The notes below the pieces were generated by a model that worked only from the letters and a program-made list of their open reading frames with translations, was not told the origin of the DNA and did not search any database. The position numbers and the translations under genes were made by a program. From IMG/VR virus record IMGVR_UViG_2548876943_000007: a stretch of DNA of 5,337 nt. One strand, written 5' to 3'. Positions 229-5,285 of the stretch are shown one piece after another. Each line of letters starts with the position of its first letter. Positions within the stretch are counted from its first letter, which is position 1. Source of the stretch: a virus. Taxonomy: Duplodnaviria; Heunggongvirae; Uroviricota; Caudoviricetes.

Positions 229-534
229 TCAATCGTAATAAGCTGGAATTGATTTTCCGCGTTGCTTCTGGCGGCCTGAGCAGGTCACCCCCATTTCACT
301 GCGTGGTTTGCGGTAGTAAATACGGTTCTGTTTACGCTCGACTTCTTCTGCCTTCTTGCAGCGAAGGCTTCCGAGTGATGCTGCTTTATCTGCTCTGACG
401 CAACCAGAGAGCTTTAGCGCAATTTTTCGCGCCAGTCGCTGCTCTTGCATTGCCTGTTCACGTTGAGCCTGTCTGCGTGATCTGCGGCGATTTCTGGCGT
501 TATCGTCAGCCAGATATGTAATGACTACTGTCAT
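229..534 (-). CDS. N: Antitermination protein N-like (101 aa)
   Basis: ORF track 229..534 (-). N-terminal arginine-rich motif (NARNRRRSRRQAQREQ) resembles the boxB-binding ARM of lambda N. C-terminal YYRKPRSEMGVTCSGRQKQRGKSIPA resembles the lambda N C-terminus (WYSKPGERGITCSGRQKIKGKSIPLI) as recalled from memory. GGAGG lies 5 nt upstream of the ATG (complement of 537-541). Sits downstream of nutL and pL as in lambda. Confidence 0.85.
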   Translation of the reverse strand: MTVVITYLADDNARNRRRSRRQAQREQAMQEQRLARKIALKLSGCVRADKAASLGSLRCKKAEEVERKQNRIYYRKPRSEMGVTCSGRQKQRGKSIPAYYD

Positions 535-845: not shown

Positions 846-889
846 GTTCCCGCATTTCGGCGGGACAATCCCATCAATGTTAAAGAACC
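846..889 (-). promoter_or_regulatory. nutL site: boxA (complement of 878-889, GGTTCTTTAACA) and boxB hairpin (complement of 848-865, TCCCGC-CGAAAT-GCGGGA)
   Basis: The 18-nt boxB hairpin on the minus strand is identical to the boxB hairpin found on the plus strand downstream of cro (2545-2562). boxA resembles the CGCTCTTTAACA consensus. boxA precedes boxB by about 12 nt. The site lies between the predicted pL and N. Confidence 0.8.
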
Positions 890-934
890 TGCCAATCTTT
901 TCCGTTTGGCTTCCAGCTTCCTGCTGATGGCTAA

Positions 935-1022
935 AGAATACTGTAGGTATTTTATTGTGCAAATACCCAAGGTATTTATTTTTGATGAAATAATGATAAG
1001 CAAATGAATACAAAGGATATTT
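935..1022 (-). promoter_or_regulatory. OL/pL region: operators OL-a (936-952, GAATACTGTAGGTATTT), OL-b (961-977, AAATACCCAAGGTATTT), possible OL-c (1006-1022, GAATACAAAGGATATTT); candidate pL -35 TTTGCA (complement of 958-963) and -10 TATTCT (complement of 935-940)
   Basis: Imperfect palindromes of the form AATAC-N5-GTATT recur here and in the cI-cro intergenic region. OL-b closely matches OR-a (AAATACCCTGAGTATTG) and OL-a matches OR-b (GAATACCTGTAGTATTC). Promoter hexamers with a 17-bp spacer overlap the operators and point leftward toward nutL and N. Confidence 0.7.
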
Positions 1023-1107
1023 ATTTTTTCGGTGTCTGCTTGTTCAGTGCTTTTTATGCGGGATATGTGAAGTGGATCCCGATAGCTATTGCTGCCGGGA
1101 TTATAGG

Positions 1108-1476
1108 TTAGTCAGCGAAGGTTAAGACGAGAATTACCTTAATGATGTCTGCTACAACAGACACGGCCATAGATAAACCAAAGACGATCCAAGCCACAGT
1201 GATGTCTTCACTACCATCGTATAGAGTTCCGTAATCACTGGTGTAAGGCGTAAATGTCGCGCCTTGATACAATAGGTATAAGCTTGATCCATAGAGGATA
1301 AATGCAGATATCCCTTGTATTGCTATGATCACCAGAATCATGAAACGAGCTGATCTATGCGCCCAAGCCTGGCTTATTTTTTCTGATAGAGATTTCGCAA
1401 TAAAAGCATGCGCTAAGCCGTAAATTGTCGAGATTGCCAACATCCCAAAAAAGCTTGCTATAGCGGTTCCAACCAT
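1108..1476 (-). CDS. Small integral membrane protein (122 aa, about 3 predicted TM helices), co-oriented with and immediately downstream of cI; candidate lysogen-expressed exclusion or defence protein
   Basis: ORF track 1108..1476 (-). Three long hydrophobic stretches (about residues 2-27, 45-70, 93-119) flank an acidic and aromatic loop (TPYTSDYGTLYDGSEDIT). RBS AAGGGGG lies about 7 nt upstream of the ATG. Only 18 bp separate the cI stop from this start, which implies co-transcription from pRM. It occupies the slot between cI and pL that lambda uses for rexA-rexB. No sequence family recognised. Confidence 0.7.
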   Translation of the reverse strand: MVGTAIASFFGMLAISTIYGLAHAFIAKSLSEKISQAWAHRSARFMILVIIAIQGISAFILYGSSLYLLYQGATFTPYTSDYGTLYDGSEDITVAWIVFGLSMAVSVVADIIKVILVLTFAD

Positions 1477-1494
1477 AAGCGCCCCCTTGCGTGA

Positions 1495-2211
1495 TCAAAC
1501 CAGCCTTAGTTTTGTCTCAATTGCAACGCCTATAATCTTGCAGTTTCCATTGATTGGCACGAGAGGCCATGCAGGGTTAAGTCCCTTGAGGTATTTATTT
1601 CCGCCGTCGATTATCAGCTTCTTGAATGTTGCTTCGTTAGAGTCAGAAAGTTTTGCTATGACCAAGCTGCCGTTGATCGCCTCCCTTCCGGTATCGAAAA
1701 GAACGAATGTTCCCTCTGGAATGCTTAACCCAACCGGTGCCGTCATTGAATCACCTTCCACTTTAAGCCAGAACGCATTACCTTGAATATGCGCGTCAGA
1801 CTCAAGCCAAACATCTATGTCTTTAATGGTGTATGGTTCGCATGCTTCACACCACGAGCCAGCCTGGATACTGCTTAACACCGGATACCTCTTTCCTGCT
1901 CTGTATTCCCCTGCATACCTTACGTTGGCATCGCTCTTAAGGCTTTCTGCCTGTTCTGCAACCTTGGCAGCAATTGACTGGCTAAAATCAGCAATTGAGA
2001 CTTGCAACAAACGTGCAAAACCAGATGCGACCTCAACGTTTAGCGCGTTTCTGCCATTAAGATAATGCCCTACCGCTCCTTGGGTGATACCCAGTTCATC
2101 AGCGATTGAGTATTGGGTTATTCCCAATTCTTTCTTTTTTGACTCATACAAAGCCTTAAGCCGCTTAGCGTCTTCGAGCTGTTCTGTCGTCAGTGATTTT
2201 TTATTTTCCAT
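1495..2211 (-). CDS. cI: CI-type phage repressor (238 aa): N-terminal HTH plus C-terminal LexA-like S24 autopeptidase domain
   Basis: ORF track 1495..2211 (-). HTH segment ITQYSIADELGITQGAVGHYLNG. C-terminal region RYPVLSSIQAGSW...AFWLKVEGDSMTAP...ATFKKLI resembles lambda cI (Ala-Gly cleavage site, catalytic Ser in GDSM, Lys in FKKL) as recalled from memory. Divergent from cro across an operator-rich intergenic region. No Shine-Dalgarno precedes the ATG. Confidence 0.95.
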   Translation of the reverse strand: MENKKSLTTEQLEDAKRLKALYESKKKELGITQYSIADELGITQGAVGHYLNGRNALNVEVASGFARLLQVSIADFSQSIAAKVAEQAESLKSDANVRYAGEYRAGKRYPVLSSIQAGSWCEACEPYTIKDIDVWLESDAHIQGNAFWLKVEGDSMTAPVGLSIPEGTFVLFDTGREAINGSLVIAKLSDSNEATFKKLIIDGGNKYLKGLNPAWPLVPINGNCKIIGVAIETKLRLV

Positions 2212-2295
2212 AGCTTAATTCTAATAGCTAAGGTACTTAAACTAAAAATACCCTGAGTATTGATTGCTTTGAATACCTGTAGTATTCTTTGTTCA
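2212..2295. promoter_or_regulatory. OR switch region: operators OR-c (2223-2237, AATAGCTAAGGTACT, degenerate), OR-a (2246-2262), OR-b (2271-2287); candidate pR -35 TTGATT (2260-2265) and -10 TATTCT (2283-2288); candidate pRM -10 TAGAAT (complement of 2218-2223)
   Basis: Three AATAC-N5-GTATT-type imperfect palindromes spaced about 24-25 bp centre to centre between the divergent cI and cro starts. Promoter-like hexamers overlap the operators in both directions. The pRM -10 sits 6 nt from the cI ATG, implying a leaderless cI mRNA. Confidence 0.7.
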
Positions 2296-2317: not shown

Positions 2318-2512
2318 ATGATTCGAATGACACTTGCCGATTACGCCAAAATCCATGGACAGGCTAAAGCAGCCAGTGACTTTGGTGTAATCCAGTGCGC
2401 TATCAGCAAGGCCATTCTGGCAGGCCGTAACATTATGGTTACGGTAAAGCCTGATGGCAGTGTGATTGGAGAGGAAGTTCGTCCTTTCCCAAGCAACAAG
2501 AAAAACAAATAG
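2318..2512 (+). CDS. cro: Cro-like repressor (64 aa from ATG 2318; the ORF track begins at an upstream in-frame GTG at 2312)
   Basis: Translation [64 protein letters not shown] closely resembles lambda Cro ([59 protein letters not shown]) as recalled from memory. GGAG at 2306-2309 lies 8 nt before the ATG at 2318. Divergent from cI. Confidence 0.9.
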
Positions 2513-2518
2513 TAACAC

Positions 2519-2563
2519 CGCTCTTTAACAGTCATGGTCCTCATTCCCGCCGAAATGCGGGAA
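2519..2563 (+). promoter_or_regulatory. nutR site: boxA CGCTCTTTAACA (2519-2530) and boxB hairpin TTCCCGC-CGAAAT-GCGGGAA (2544-2563)
   Basis: boxA matches the consensus. A perfect 7-bp stem with a 6-nt loop follows 13 nt downstream. The same hairpin occurs in inverted orientation at nutL. Location between cro and cII matches lambda nutR. Confidence 0.85.
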
Positions 2564-2569
2564 TACAAC

Positions 2570-2620: not shown

Positions 2621-2899
2621 ATGCAACTTACAAGTACTCGCAAGAAAGCGAATGCAATTACAAGCAACATCCTGAATCGAATTGCTGTACGTGGTCAGCG
2701 AAAGGTTGCCGACGCGTTAGGGATTAATGAATCGCAAATTTCGCGATGGAAAGACAGCTTCATCCCCAAAATGGGAATGCTTCTTGCTGTTCTTGAATGG
2801 GGTGTTGAAGACGAGGAGTTGGCGGAACTGGCTAAGAAAGTAGCCAGAATGCTGACAAAAGAAAAAGCCCCGAAGAACGGCGAATTCTTCGAGGCCTGA
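2621..2899 (+). CDS. cII: CII-like transcriptional activator (92 aa)
   Basis: ORF track 2621..2899 (+). Segment ESQISRWKDSFIPKMGMLLAVLEWGVEDEELAELAKKVARMLT closely resembles lambda CII (KSQISRWKRDWIPKFSMLLAVLEWGVVDDDMARLARQVAAILT) as recalled from memory. AAGGA lies upstream of the ATG. Position after cro and nutR. Confidence 0.9.
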   Translation: MQLTSTRKKANAITSNILNRIAVRGQRKVADALGINESQISRWKDSFIPKMGMLLAVLEWGVEDEELAELAKKVARMLTKEKAPKNGEFFEA

Positions 2900-2933: not shown

Positions 2934-3095
2934 ATGACAAAACGTCGTAAGAAATACCAGGAAAAAGAAGAGATTCGACACCCTGATTCACCTGAGGGAT
3001 TAGTGGTAGCCGCAGCAAATAACAGGGCGTTCGCAGAGCGCCTTGTTGGTGTTTACAGACTAGCCAAAGCAGGAGTGAAACATGGGCGTCGTTAA
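2934..3095 (+). CDS. Small basic hypothetical protein (53 aa) between cII and O, overlapping the O start by 14 nt
   Basis: ATG at 2934 preceded by AGGAG (2924-2928) at 5-nt spacing. Translation [53 protein letters not shown], stop TAA at 3093-3095. Absent from the ORF track only because it is shorter than the track's length cutoff. No family recognised. Confidence 0.5.
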   Translation: MTKRRKKYQEKEEIRHPDSPEGLVVAAANNRAFAERLVGVYRLAKAGVKHGRR

Positions 3096-3912
3096 GTTAG
3101 CTGATTACAGGCCTCAACTGGAGGTCGTGGAGCATCGCGTGGCAGAACTCGAAGATGGCTACACTCGGACTGCAAACACACTGTTAGAAGCCGCCATGCT
3201 TTCTGGACTTACTCTACATCAGTTACTGATTGTTATGGCTGTGTGGCGCAAGACATACGGTTACAACAAAAAAATAGATTGGATCGGAAACGAACAGTTC
3301 GCTGAACTCACTGGCATGGCACCAACCAAATGTTCTACCGCCAAAAACGAGCTTATCAGAATGGGAGTTCTCATTCAGGTGGGGCGTCAAGTTGGTATGA
3401 ATACAAACATTTCAGAGTGGAAAACGAAAGTTAACGGATTTGGTAAAACATTTACCAAATCGGTAAAACAAACCTTCACTAAATCGGTAAAAAGCAATTT
3501 ACCGAATCAGTCAAACACAAAAGACAATATACAAAAGACAATAAATACAAATACCCCCTTACCCCCTAACGGGGGCGGCGATGGGCAGGTTAAACCTGAA
3601 CGTCGCAAGGCAGAACGAATCGACTACGAATCCTTCCTGAACGCCTACAACGCCGAAGTCGGTGACAGACTGCCACACGCTGTTGCGGTCAACGAGAAAC
3701 GCAAACGCCGCCTGAAGAAAATCATCCCGCAACTGAAAACGCCAAATGTGGACGGTTTCAGAGCGTATGTCAGGGCGTTTGTGCATCAGGCCAAACCGTT
3801 TTACTTCGGAGACAACGACACGGGCTGGACGGCTGATTTTGATTACCTGCTGAGGGAAGACTCGTTAACGGGAGTTCGGGAAGGGAAGTTTGCAGACAGG
3901 GGGATTGCATGA
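3082..3912 (+). CDS. O: Replication initiator, lambda O-like (276 aa), with the origin embedded in the coding sequence
   Basis: ORF track 3082..3912 (+). N-terminal region [15 protein letters not shown]...[45 protein letters not shown]...NISEW resembles the lambda O origin-binding domain as recalled from memory. A central low-complexity linker ([47 protein letters not shown]) is encoded by the iteron and AT-rich DNA. The stop overlaps the helicase start (ATGA at 3909-3912). Confidence 0.9.
3439..3580. repeat. Candidate origin of replication: dyad iterons (3439-3459 TTTGGTAAA-ACA-TTTACCAAA; 3484-3505 TCGGTAAA-AAGCAA-TTTACCGA; GGTAAAA repeated at 3442, 3462, 3485), an AT-rich tract with tandem CAAAAGACAATA (3508-3553), then a GC-rich CCCCC...GGGGG element (3554-3580)
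   Basis: Directly visible repeated and inverted GGTAAA/TTTACC motifs inside the O-like gene, followed by an A-rich region and a GC-rich dyad. This is the same layout as lambda ori (iterons, AT-rich region, palindrome) inside the O gene. Confidence 0.8.
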
Positions 3913-5285
3913 GACAGGATATCGAAGCGAGCGTTATCGGTGGCCTGCTGATTGGTGGATTAACTCCAACCGCCAGTGACGTTCTGGCAACGCTTGAGCC
4001 GGAAGCGTTTTCAATTCCGCTCTACAGGAAAGCCTTCGAGGTTATCCGCAAGCAGGCGCGAAACAGAAACCTAATCGACGCGCTGATGGTTGCCGAGGCG
4101 TGCGGAGAGGAGCATTTCACGTCAATCCTGATGACCAGCAAAAACTGCCCGAGTGCCGCAAACCTGAAGGGATATGCCGGAATGGTCGCGGATAACTATC
4201 ACCGCCGTCTGGTGCTGGAAATCATGGATGAAATGCGTGAACCAATTCAGAGCGGAACCATCGACGCATCGAGTCAGGCGATGGACGAGCTTGTAAAGCG
4301 TCTTTCAGCCATCAGAAAGCCCCGTGACGAGGTTAAACCTGTACGGTTAGGGGAAATCATCACCGACTACACTGACACGCTTGACAGGCGTCTGAGGAAC
4401 GGAGAAGAGTCAGATACCCTGAAGACCGGAATCGAAGAACTTGACGCCATCACCGGAGGGATGAACGCAGAAGACCTGGTGATTATCGCCGCTCGTCCTG
4501 GTATGGGGAAAACCGAACTGGCGCTGAAGATTGCCGAAGGTGTTGCAAGCCGCGTTATTCCTGGTTCTGACGTCAGGCGCGGAGTGTTGATTTTCTCGAT
4601 GGAAATGAGCGCATTGCAGATTGCAGAGCGAAGCATTGCCAACGCCGGGAGGATGTCGGTTAGCGTGCTACGAAATCCTGCATCGATGGATGACGAAGGC
4701 TGGGCACGTGTTGCTAACGGCATGAGTCAGCTTGCAGATTTGGATGTATGGGTAGTCGATGCCTCGCGGTTATCGGTAGAAGAAATTCGCTCAATCGCAG
4801 AGCGGCACAAACAGGAAAATCCAAACCTGTCACTCATCATGGCGGATTATCTTGGCCTGATTGAGAAGCCGAAAGCAGACCGCAACGACCTCGCAATTGC
4901 TCACATCTCAGGAAGCCTTAAGGCGATGGCGAAAGACCTGAAAACGCCAGTTATCTCCCTGAGTCAGCTTTCGCGCGATGTTGAGAAGCGACCAAACAAA
5001 CGCCCGACAAACGCAGATTTGCGTGATTCAGGAAGCATTGAACAGGACGCAGACTCAATCATCATGCTCTATCGGGAAGCGGTATATGACGAGAACAGTA
5101 GCGCCGCACCATTTGCTGAAATCATTGTGACGAAAAACCGTTTTGGCTCGCTTGGTACGGTTTACCAGCGGTTCTGCAACGGACACTTTGTTGCATGTGA
5201 CCAGGATGAAGCCAGACAGATTTGCACAGCATCAAATGCACCTGCTGCGCGTGGCAGACGATATGCACAAGGGGCTGACGTATGA
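3909..5285 (+). CDS. Replicative DNA helicase, DnaB family (458 aa; P22 gene 12-like)
   Basis: ORF track 3909..5285 (+). Walker [15 protein letters not shown], Walker B-like [10 protein letters not shown], and [39 protein letters not shown] matching the DnaB motifs (SQLNR...[17 protein letters not shown]) as recalled from memory. Translationally coupled to the O-like gene. Confidence 0.95.

Follow-up and report, generated by a model that had tools for sequence, protein, structure and literature searches.

Results

The immunity region and its operators

The window, the whole 5,337-nucleotide stretch of DNA that was analyzed, carries a cI repressor gene and a divergently transcribed cro gene, and the gap between them holds three operators that overlap the candidate promoters pR and pRM; a second operator cluster lies over candidate pL (936-977), upstream of N (Table 1). 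An earlier note made from the sequence alone had described six palindromes that share the half-sites AATAC and GTATT, and all six sequences are found where it placed them, though its operator labels run in the reverse of the conventional numbering, which is used here. In the window the half-site can be written as nAATAC(C/T), arranged in 17-bp pseudo-palindromes, with OL2 the most symmetric (7 of 8 pairs). The left and right copies had been called nearly identical pairwise, which is generous, as OL2 with OR2 and OL1 with OR1 agree at 14 of 17 positions each, and only after one partner is reverse-complemented; they are still the best-matching pairs, and their opposite orientation is expected because the promoters are mirror images.

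Table 1. Features of the immunity region and their positions in the window
Feature	Position	Strand	Sequence	Label in earlier note	Remarks
N	229-534	-			From the open reading frame list
pL (candidate)	935-963	-			-35 TTTGCA (963-958), 17-bp spacer, -10 TATTCT (940-935); inside HK620 pL feature
OL1	936-952		GAATACTGTAGGTATTT	OL-a	HK620 OL1; exact AATAC-N5-GTATT; overlaps pL -10
OL2	961-977		AAATACCCAAGGTATTT	OL-b	HK620 OL2; overlaps pL -35
OL3 as annotated in HK620	983-999		TGATGAAATAATGATAA		Not supported as operator
Probable OL3	1006-1022		GAATACAAAGGATATTT	OL-c	Within HK620-annotated terminator tIMM
cI repressor	1495-2211	-			238 aa; N-terminal HTH domain and S24 autocleavage domain
cI recognition helix	residues 44-55		QGAVGHYLNGRN		
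pRM (candidate)	2218-2246	-			-35 TTTAGT (2246-2241), 17-bp spacer, -10 TAGAAT (2223-2218)
OR3	2222-2238		TAATAGCTAAGGTACTT	OR-c	HK620 OR3; overlaps pRM
OR-c as first delimited	2223-2237		AATAGCTAAGGTACT	OR-c	
OR2	2246-2262		AAATACCCTGAGTATTG	OR-a	HK620 OR2; overlaps pR -35
pR (candidate)	2260-2288	+			-35 TTGATT, 17-bp spacer, -10 TATTCT (2283-2288)
OR1	2271-2287		GAATACCTGTAGTATTC	OR-b	HK620 OR1; spans pR spacer and -10
cro	2318-2512	+			64 aa; lambda-Cro fold family; recognition helix QCAISK

The palindromes are clearly enriched over a shuffled control, with nine matches to AATAC-N5-GTATT (up to 2 mismatches) vs 2.0 expected, a count that none of 200 dinucleotide-preserving shuffles reached. 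Exact copies number four in the window vs 0.005 expected, and the only four in the HK620 genome (38,297 bp; 0.045 expected) are OL1, OL2, OR2, and OR1. These four sites were used to build a PWM, on which they score 20.4, 22.6, 20.4, and 20.0 bits, respectively. The remaining two, 1006-1022 (13.5 bits) and the weakly matching OR3 (11.3 bits), compare with best matches in shuffled windows of mean 10.0 and maximum 16.8 bits and are not significant from sequence alone; both are backed by their position and by conservation in relatives.

TATTCT had been proposed as the -10 hexamer of both pL and pR, and it is present at both, in each case 17 bp from a -35-like hexamer. The HK620 pR feature maps to 2260-2295 in the window, and the pR candidate matches it exactly; candidate pL would drive N leftward. 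The predicted -10 of pRM ends 6 nt before the cI ATG, so that the cI mRNA would lack a leader, as it does in lambda. Because pR and pL each agree with the sigma-70 consensus at 8 of 12 positions, they fall below the threshold of a generic sigma-70 scan of 850-2350, which returned no promoter of at least 9/12; what supports the calls of pL, pR, and pRM is thus their position together with the HK620 annotation, and not a close fit to the consensus. No Rfam family was found in the window; nutL is annotated in the HK620 record.

Identity with the HK620 immunity module

Positions 900-2330 of the window are 99.0% identical in nucleotide sequence to phage HK620 (AF335538; Clark et al. 2001, J Mol Biol 311:657). 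The HK620 record already lists OL1-3, OR1-3, pL, and pR, and its features coincide with five of the six sites of the earlier note. HK620 and its relatives are 98.6-99.5% identical to the window across the same interval, and the module is carried by mEpX2, HK630, HK140, HF4s, HZ41, vB_EcoP_phi296, and vB_EcoP_phi367 and by the Stx2c phages Stx2_EH1904 and Stx2_5044; among complete E. coli genomes it occurs in 224 of 5426 (about 4%). The OL1, OL2, OR1, OR2, and OR3 17-mers of this group are identical to those of the window, its cI N-terminal domains are 98.9-100% identical (98.9% in HK620, 100% in mEpX2 and HK140), the Cro of the HK620 locus (L001) is 100% identical, and an hkaS-like gene has the same location. 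The window thus belongs to the HK620 immunity type by its cI and Cro specificity determinants as well as by its operator sequences. It differs by one base in the pL -35, where C960 gives TTTGCA in place of the TTTACA of HK620 and relatives, and the N and replication modules that flank the immunity region are mosaic. The best matches to the whole window are HZ41 and 611R6, with 84-85% coverage.

Comparison with lambda, 434, and P22

The layout of operators and promoters is that of lambda almost base for base: 17-bp operators come in triplets, 11 nt separate the cI ATG from OR3 in both, and the OR sites, which start at 2222, 2246, and 2271, are spaced 24 and 25 bp apart vs 23 and 24 bp in lambda. 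As in lambda, OR1 and OR2 lie over the -10 and -35 of pR, OL1 and OL2 lie over those of pL, and a leaderless-type pRM is predicted to be common to both. The two regions differ in that a single 122-aa membrane ORF stands in place of rexA and rexB.

The cI protein aligns with the lambda repressor (3bdn) over residues 3-232 (E 2.9e-52), is 53% identical to it over the N-terminal domain, and matches Pfam HTH_3 and Peptidase_S24. In the alignment to lambda cI it keeps the QAG cleavage site, the GxSM serine (GxSMTAP), and the FKKL lysine (TFKKLI), so that the predicted determinants of RecA-stimulated autocleavage, an Ala-Gly site and a Ser/Lys dyad, are all in place. Cro matches lambda Cro (1cop; E 4.7e-19) and Pfam Cro PF09048 (E 3.6e-26).

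The operator sequences are a different matter. With the window motif, the six annotated lambda operators score -7.3 to 5.0 bits, and the window sites score -8.3 to 2.8 bits with a lambda matrix that gives lambda's own operators 14.7-21.8, so cross-scoring fails in both directions. The 434 operators have the form ACAA-N6-TTGT and the P22 operators TTAAG-N4-CTTAA. Scanning with these consensus sequences detected neither kind of site in the OL or OR regions, and matches elsewhere are at or below chance, which places the window outside 434 and P22 immunity.

Between the lambda half-site TATCACC and the nAATACC of the window, positions 2, 5, 6, and 7 (A, A, C, C) are identical, and of the seven contacted positions only 1, 3, and 4 differ. 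The cI recognition helix, QSGVGALFNGIN in lambda and QGAVGHYLNGRN in the window, differs by S45G, G46A, A49H, L50Y, and I54R, and the Cro helix changes from QSAINK to QCAISK (S28C, N31S in lambda numbering, at residues 27 and 30 of the window's Cro). The window does not fall within the imm-lambda type, characterized by the half-site TATCACCGC and the cI helix QSGVGALFN, as both the operators and the helix differ. An "evolutionary code" published for Cro assigns A+2 to Gln H1, A+5 to Ala H3, and C+6 to Lys H6 (PMC6649833), and the Cro of the window, with its Q, A, and K and a half-site with A2, A5, and C6, agrees with it. The same study has an Asn of lambda Cro, labelled H4, contacting base pair 3 (PMC6649833); we take this to be Asn31, which is H5 in that paper's numbering. 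This residue is Ser in the Cro of the window, and base pair 3 also differs.

Pairing of helix and motif across taxa

A tandem-motif scan was rejected as proof of a link between helix and motif, because loci selected by motif make the argument circular, and the co-variation test was repeated on loci retrieved by cI protein, one genome per species. In at least 29 species, prophages whose cI has the helix QG[AG]VGHY also have AATAC operators; relative to the cI start, the AATAC-type sites of loci with this helix lie at -27, -51, and -75. Across 29 distinct loci, conservation of 80% or more extends to positions 2-5, 13, and 16 of the 17-mer in each of the three OR sites. At OR1 and OR2 it takes in positions 6, 12, 14, and 15 as well, not all of which attain that level at OR3, and the centre varies freely; at the position homologous to OR3 the consensus of 29 other species is TAATACCnnngnTatTa.

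The related repressors, which include those of Yersinia, Pantoea, Proteus, Morganella, and Microbulbifer prophages, come from other Enterobacterales and distant Gammaproteobacteria and have cI N-terminal domains 34-84% identical to that of the window. The prophage loci examined have AATAC/GTATT half-sites at three OR positions with spacing as in the window, the OR1-OR2 gap being 9 bp in several and 10 bp in the window; Cro is 46-87% identical, with the helix VHQTAISKA in many, and the genes between cI and OL are other than those of the window. The AATAC pattern is kept in Microbulbifer (cI 40-49% identity) and Thiolinea (34%), and similar sites at shifted offsets are found in Psychrobacter (48%). 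Serratia phage OS31, Hafnia phage Pocitis76, Erwinia phage EhrS_49, and Escherichia phage Fostie were identified as relatives by cI similarity only, their N-terminal domains being 67-84% identical. No AATAC-type sites were found at loci with a lambda-type (QSGVGALF) or Xenorhabdus-type (QSAVAQLL) helix. Four loci (L135, L142, L148, and L152) have the cI helix of the window, yet their OR2 half-sites are CCTAC/GTAG and not AATAC, so the link between helix and motif is not absolute.

Discussion

We consider it very likely that the window represents an HK620-type immunity region, from a lambdoid prophage or phage, and that its palindromes are cI/Cro operators. Judged from their sequence, the AATAC-N5-GTATT repeats are the predicted left and right repressor and Cro sites of a lambda-like switch that was annotated in 2001 for coliphage HK620, and the original observation on the palindromes was correct, ordinary, and already known. 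The earlier note had gone on to propose a distinct immunity group despite a lambda-like cro and cII, and this proposal is upheld by the lack of a match to the lambda, 434, or P22 operators and by the heteroimmunity of mEpX2, though the group already bears the name of HK620 immunity type. The cI N-terminal domain of phage mEpX2 is identical to that of the window; this phage is treated as heteroimmune to lambda, HK022, and phi80, was placed in an immunity group apart from these and from mEp043, mEp213, mEp235, and mEpX1, and was used in the construction of lambda/HK022/mEpX2 triple lysogens (PMC3442831). The HK620 operator annotation may have prediction as its sole basis, and the literature searched, which did not include the HK620 genome paper itself, yielded no experiment on binding to operators of this kind.

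Two other accounts of the palindromes as a set can be weighed against this. That they are chance symmetry in intergenic DNA, with no regulatory role, might be suggested by the AT-richness of the OL and OR regions and by the two weak sites, which are individually at noise level, but the palindrome count was not matched in any shuffle, every one of the four exact copies expected 0.045 times in 38 kb lies at OL or OR, and across 29 species the half-sites are conserved with the central bases free, all of which makes this explanation negligibly probable. It is also very improbable, if slightly less so, that a host factor or other phage regulator binds the palindromes and that cI and Cro act elsewhere. 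As cI and Cro binding is predicted from sequence, there is some room for such a protein; against it, the motif follows the cI recognition helix across repressors that are 34-100% identical and is absent beside lambda-type helices, the sites repeat lambda's layout around pR, pRM, and pL, and the cI-cro gap contains no other repeated motif.

For the left operator the choice is less one-sided. OL might have two true operators only, or its third at 983-999, with 1006-1022 serving as the tIMM of the cI-hkaS transcript or as another AT-rich element, an arrangement that we judge rather unlikely. The HK620 record itself speaks for it, since it has OL3 at 983-999 and tIMM over the stretch corresponding to 996-1026, as do the score of 1006-1022, a value that the best chance matches can reach, the 45 bp between its centre and that of OL2, unlike the 20 bp of lambda, and a T-run after the site that is invariant in all relatives. 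However, the half-sites of 983-999 score -8.8 and -4.8 (total -13.6 bits), and this segment is without conservation, having a single invariant column in an alignment of diverged relatives. The leftward-strand RNA at 1006-1022 folds into no more than a weak hairpin (-4.7 kcal/mol, z -0.5), which has a stem entirely of A/U and no U-run after it, and a generic terminator scan of 850-2350 called no terminator-like site there or near OL. Moreover, 1006-1022 is the top-scoring site outside the matrix-building set in both the window and the whole HK620 genome, and a motif-like site of 10.6-16.9 bits is retained at its offset in the diverged relatives L012, L044, L058, L116, and L008 despite diverging flanks. 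In other sub-lineages the third site lies 21 or 30 bp from OL2, and separate GC-rich terminators are located farther right. OL3 is therefore probably at 1006-1022 rather than 983-999, and the HK620 OL3 and tIMM features are probably mis-annotations that have been passed on in HK620-derived records. A small hydrophobic peptide starting from a conserved ATG beside this candidate (1004-1111, + strand) was also considered and was rejected because, in a reading by eye of L012 and L058, the frame breaks off after 3-11 codons.

A scheme for the cI/Cro switch can be drawn from what was observed, namely the sites, their enrichment and arrangement, the homology of the proteins, and the pairing of helix and motif across many taxa; binding itself, the sequence in which the sites fill, cooperativity, and activation are carried over from lambda by analogy. 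Repressor dimers at OR1 and OR2 would block pR, and the dimer at OR2, the centre of which is at -43 relative to the cI start, would stimulate a weak and leaderless pRM, while occupation of OL1 and OL2 would keep pL, and hence N, off. OR3 would be a deliberately poor site over pRM, and Cro, acting on the same sites, would turn off pRM and later pR and pL. The altered operator specificity would accompany the recognition-helix changes in cI and Cro.

The discovery value of the module is small, as it has been deposited and annotated since 2001 and on paper behaves like the switch of lambda. It does offer a clean natural case in which a lambda-family repressor is redirected at two half-site base pairs by a small number of changes in its helix, the signature of motif plus helix is usable to call the HK620-type immunity class in prophage surveys, and the probable OL3/tIMM mis-annotation is flagged for HK620-derived records. 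A broader reading, which we regard as possible without favoring it, is that AATAC-N5-GTATT together with QG[AG]VGHY marks not just one E. coli immunity type but a large and old specificity class found in prophages of many Gammaproteobacteria, in which the half-site is kept down to about 34% repressor identity, the distance of OL3 from OL2 is variable (21, 30, or 45 bp), and the OL3 and tIMM of HK620 are mis-assigned. If this class is real, any heteroimmunity within it must be encoded outside the recognition helix, with the central bases, the 9- vs 10-bp inter-operator gap, the N-terminal arm, and cooperativity as candidate determinants, or else many such phages would be unexpectedly cross-immune.

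The operators are those of the HK620 immunity type

Over 900-2330 the window shares 98.6-99.5% identity with 16 phage records, among them HK620, HK630, HK140, mEpX2, HF4s, HZ41, 611R6, phi296, phi367 and two Stx2c-converting phages, and the same segment has matches in 224 of 5426 complete E. coli genomes, in 146 of which they cover 80% or more of it. The HK620 record (AF335538; Clark et al. 2001) has features for OL1, OL2, OL3, tIMM, OR3, OR2, OR1, pL, pR, nutL, nutR and pRE, which were mapped onto the window through exact string matches, so that five of the six AATAC/GTATT palindromes proposed in the earlier note are exactly deposited operators; its a/b/c labels run in the order opposite to conventional numbering. 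The system is the already described HK620 immunity type, on the lambda model: the observation is real and was correctly interpreted, and both the operators and the distinct immunity were already known. The literature searched, outside which lay the HK620 paper and two Cordes Cro/operator papers, contained no operator-binding study for this immunity type.

Every sequence quoted in the earlier note lies where it was placed, and the palindromes are enriched: with up to two mismatches there are 9 matches against 2.0 expected, a count reached by 0 of 200 dinucleotide-preserving shuffles, and exact AATAC-N5-GTATT occurs 4 times in the window (0.005 expected). The whole HK620 genome (38,297 bp) holds 4 exact copies (0.045 expected), solely the same four sites. 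Within the window, a half-site weight matrix derived from these four places the two weaker proposals next, 1006-1022 fifth with 13.5 bits and 2222-2238 sixth with 11.3 bits; because these scores overlap the best chance scores in shuffles (mean 10.0, maximum 16.8 bits), both sites count as candidates when judged by sequence alone. The left and right copies had been called nearly identical in pairs, and OL2/OR2 and OL1/OR1 are indeed the best pairs of all comparisons, the likeness being 14 of 17 positions each, in mirrored orientation.

Gene and promoter layout

By its ORF map, profile searches and solved-structure matches, the window is a lambdoid early region of textbook form. The slot between cI and OL, filled by rexA and rexB in lambda, holds a predicted membrane ORF that was assigned to PHROG 6534 (function unknown) and matched no Pfam family above threshold. 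The cargo of this slot varies among relatives, with OL-to-cro distances of ~960 to ~3470 bp. A boxB hairpin, TTCCCGCCGAAATGCGGGAA, is common to nutL and nutR, which adjoin the phage-21/H-19B-type N; both also have a boxA, which reads CGCTCTTTAAC at nutR, and the window nutL departs from the HK620 one at one or more bases. Within the O gene, AAATCGGTAAAA-like units (3440-3510, plus strand) are directly repeated; they correspond to the iterons that the HK620 record annotates at the replication origin.

Features of the window, with positions in nucleotides
Feature	Position	Strand	Detail
N	229-534	-	phage-21/H-19B-type (PHROG 271)
nutL	848-889	-	
pL/OL intergenic region	~930-1030		
pL candidate	-10 at 940-935	-	-35 TTTGCA, 17-bp spacer, -10 TATTCT
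OL1	936-952		HK620 feature mapped
OL2	961-977		HK620 feature mapped
OL3 of HK620 record	983-999		equivalent position
tIMM terminator of HK620 record	996-1026		equivalent position
Membrane ORF (hkaS in HK620)	1108-1476	-	122 aa, predicted
cI	1495-2211	-	
cI-cro gap			106 bp
pRM candidate		- (cI strand)	-35 TTTAGT, -10 TAGAAT
OR3	2222-2238		HK620 feature mapped
OR2	2246-2262		HK620 feature mapped
OR1	2271-2287		HK620 feature mapped
pR	2260-2295		HK620 feature mapped
pR candidate	-10 at 2283-2288	+	-35 TTGATT, 17-bp spacer, -10 TATTCT
cro	2318-2512	+	
nutR	2519-2564	+	downstream of cro, before cII
cII	2621-2899		
O-type initiator	3082-3912		
DnaB-type helicase	3909-5285		

The layout can be superimposed on that of lambda, with 11 nt between the cI ATG and the start of OR3 in both and operator start-to-start spacings of 24 and 25 bp, compared with 23 and 24 bp in lambda. 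TATTCT, earlier suggested as the -10 of both pR and pL, is the candidate -10 of each, 17 bp after a candidate -35; the two pR hexamers (-35, -10) lie under OR2 and OR1, and those of pL under OL2 and OL1. The pRM candidate has a good -10 that ends 6 nt before the cI ATG, implying that the cI message would be leaderless, like the lambda pRM transcript, and a poor -35 that abuts OR2; OR2 is centred at -43, where lambda cI sits when it activates pRM. Binding is inferred on this model, as are cooperativity, activation and the order in which the sites are occupied. All three promoters are sub-consensus on paper, and a generic sigma-70 scan of 850-2350 found no promoter at 9/12 or better, where shuffles expect 3.8. 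Position 960 is C in the window and T in HK620 and all related loci examined, which turns the pL -35 from TTTACA into TTTGCA, a worse consensus match; this could be a weak-pL variant or a simple polymorphism.

Distinctness from lambda and the recognition helices

The proposal of a distinct immunity group is borne out. The six annotated lambda sites score -7.3 to 5.0 bits with the window matrix, and on a lambda matrix, where lambda's own sites reach 14.7-21.8, the window sites score at most 2.8 bits. The half-site consensuses, TATCACCG in the window and AAATACCT in lambda, have positions 2, 5, 6 and 7 in common but not 1, 3, 4 and 8; neither 434-like nor P22-like patterns occur in the OL or OR regions. 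The cI N-terminal domain of mEpX2 is 100% identical to that of the window, and PMC3442831, in which triple lysogens of lambda, HK022 and mEpX2 were constructed, assigns mEpX2 to a different immunity group from those of lambda, HK022, phi80, mEp043, mEp213, mEp235 and mEpX1.

The window cI aligns with lambda repressor over residues 3-232, the Ala-Gly cleavage site and Ser/Lys dyad both being conserved. Its DNA-reading helix has changed from QSGVGALFNGIN in lambda to QGAVGHYLNGRN, with Gln44, Asn52 and Asn55 kept and Ser45, Gly46, Ala49, Leu50 and Ile54 changed. Cro aligns along its whole length with lambda Cro (a solved-structure match), the helix changing from QSAINK to QCAISK. All three pairings of the Cro "evolutionary code" (Gln H1-A+2, Ala H3-A+5 and Lys H6-C+6; PMC6649833) are satisfied by the window Cro and half-site. 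Base pair 3, among the differing half-site positions, is contacted by a lambda Cro Asn labelled H4 (PMC6649833), which we take to be Asn31, though this is H5 in that paper's own numbering; Asn31 is Ser in the window Cro.

Viral contigs scanned for a tandem pair of AATAC-N5-GTATT sites gave at least 120 loci, and in 73 of those listed there were cI and cro relatives, with 39 distinct OR variants, cI N-terminal domains 62-100% and Cro 46-100% identical, and an essentially invariant cI helix. Because this set had been selected by motif, the test was rerun in reverse, with loci retrieved via the cI protein (one genome per species) and the region upstream of cI then inspected. Nearly all loci with helix QG[AG]VGHY had AATAC-type sites, placed at -27, -51 and -75 relative to the cI start, and lambda-type or Xenorhabdus-type helix loci had none upstream of cI. 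Across 29 distinct loci, including Serratia, Yersinia, Pectobacterium, Pantoea, Tatumella, Proteus, Morganella and Photorhabdus, 17-mer positions 2-5, 13 and 16 are at least 80% conserved at OR1, OR2 and OR3, and positions 6, 12, 14 and 15 at OR1 and OR2, though not every one of them at OR3; the centre is free to vary. The association held in Microbulbifer (40-49% identity) and Thiolinea (34%), and in Psychrobacter (48%) comparable sites are present with their offsets shifted. The rule is strong but not absolute, since four loci (L135, L142, L148 and L152) keep the cI helix with a different Cro helix and non-AATAC OR2 half-sites.

These loci and L136, prophages of Yersinia, Pantoea and Enterobacter (L152 is labelled Chryseobacterium), have the cI helix QGAVGHYLNGR(N/I), or QSAVGHYLNGRN in L152, the Cro helix TQMAISKA or TQIAISKA, and OR2 half-sites CCTAC/GTAG (CATAC/GTAC in L152) in place of AATAC/GTATT; they may represent a sub-specificity inside the class. 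Separately, short contigs from many unrelated assemblies (L158-L175, L183, L188 and L195-L200), many at ~1x coverage and labelled Shewanella, Kitasatospora, Capnocytophaga, Paenibacillus, Bradyrhizobium, Limosilactobacillus and others, carry the cI N-terminal domain of phage lambda, with its exact recognition helix in all except one or two, and are almost certainly lambda DNA contamination of sequencing libraries.

Position of OL3

The deposited OL3, equivalent to 983-999, scores -13.6 bits and has one invariant column in an alignment of six diverged relatives, whereas 1006-1022 is the top site beyond the four matrix-building ones in both the window and the whole HK620 genome, and relatives with 60-85% identical Cro have a motif-like site at the same offset (10.6-16.9 bits) though their flanks diverge. 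The tIMM hairpin that the record places across this site is weak (-4.7 kcal/mol, z -0.5), and a terminator scan of 850-2350 found no terminator-like site there; in other sub-lineages the third site lies 21 or 30 bp away from OL2, and there are separate GC-rich terminators nearer cI. In the six diverged relatives the bases flanking the candidate (1004-1030) are invariant, ATGA to the left and TATTT-TTTT to the right, beyond what an operator needs, possibly as an UP or IHF-type element for pL or as part of a transcript end. On the poor score and conservation of 983-999, the rank and retention of 1006-1022, and the weak hairpin without a terminator call, the sixth palindrome of the earlier note is probably OL3, a candidate operator whose placement at 1006-1022 would be a minor correction of the existing annotation.
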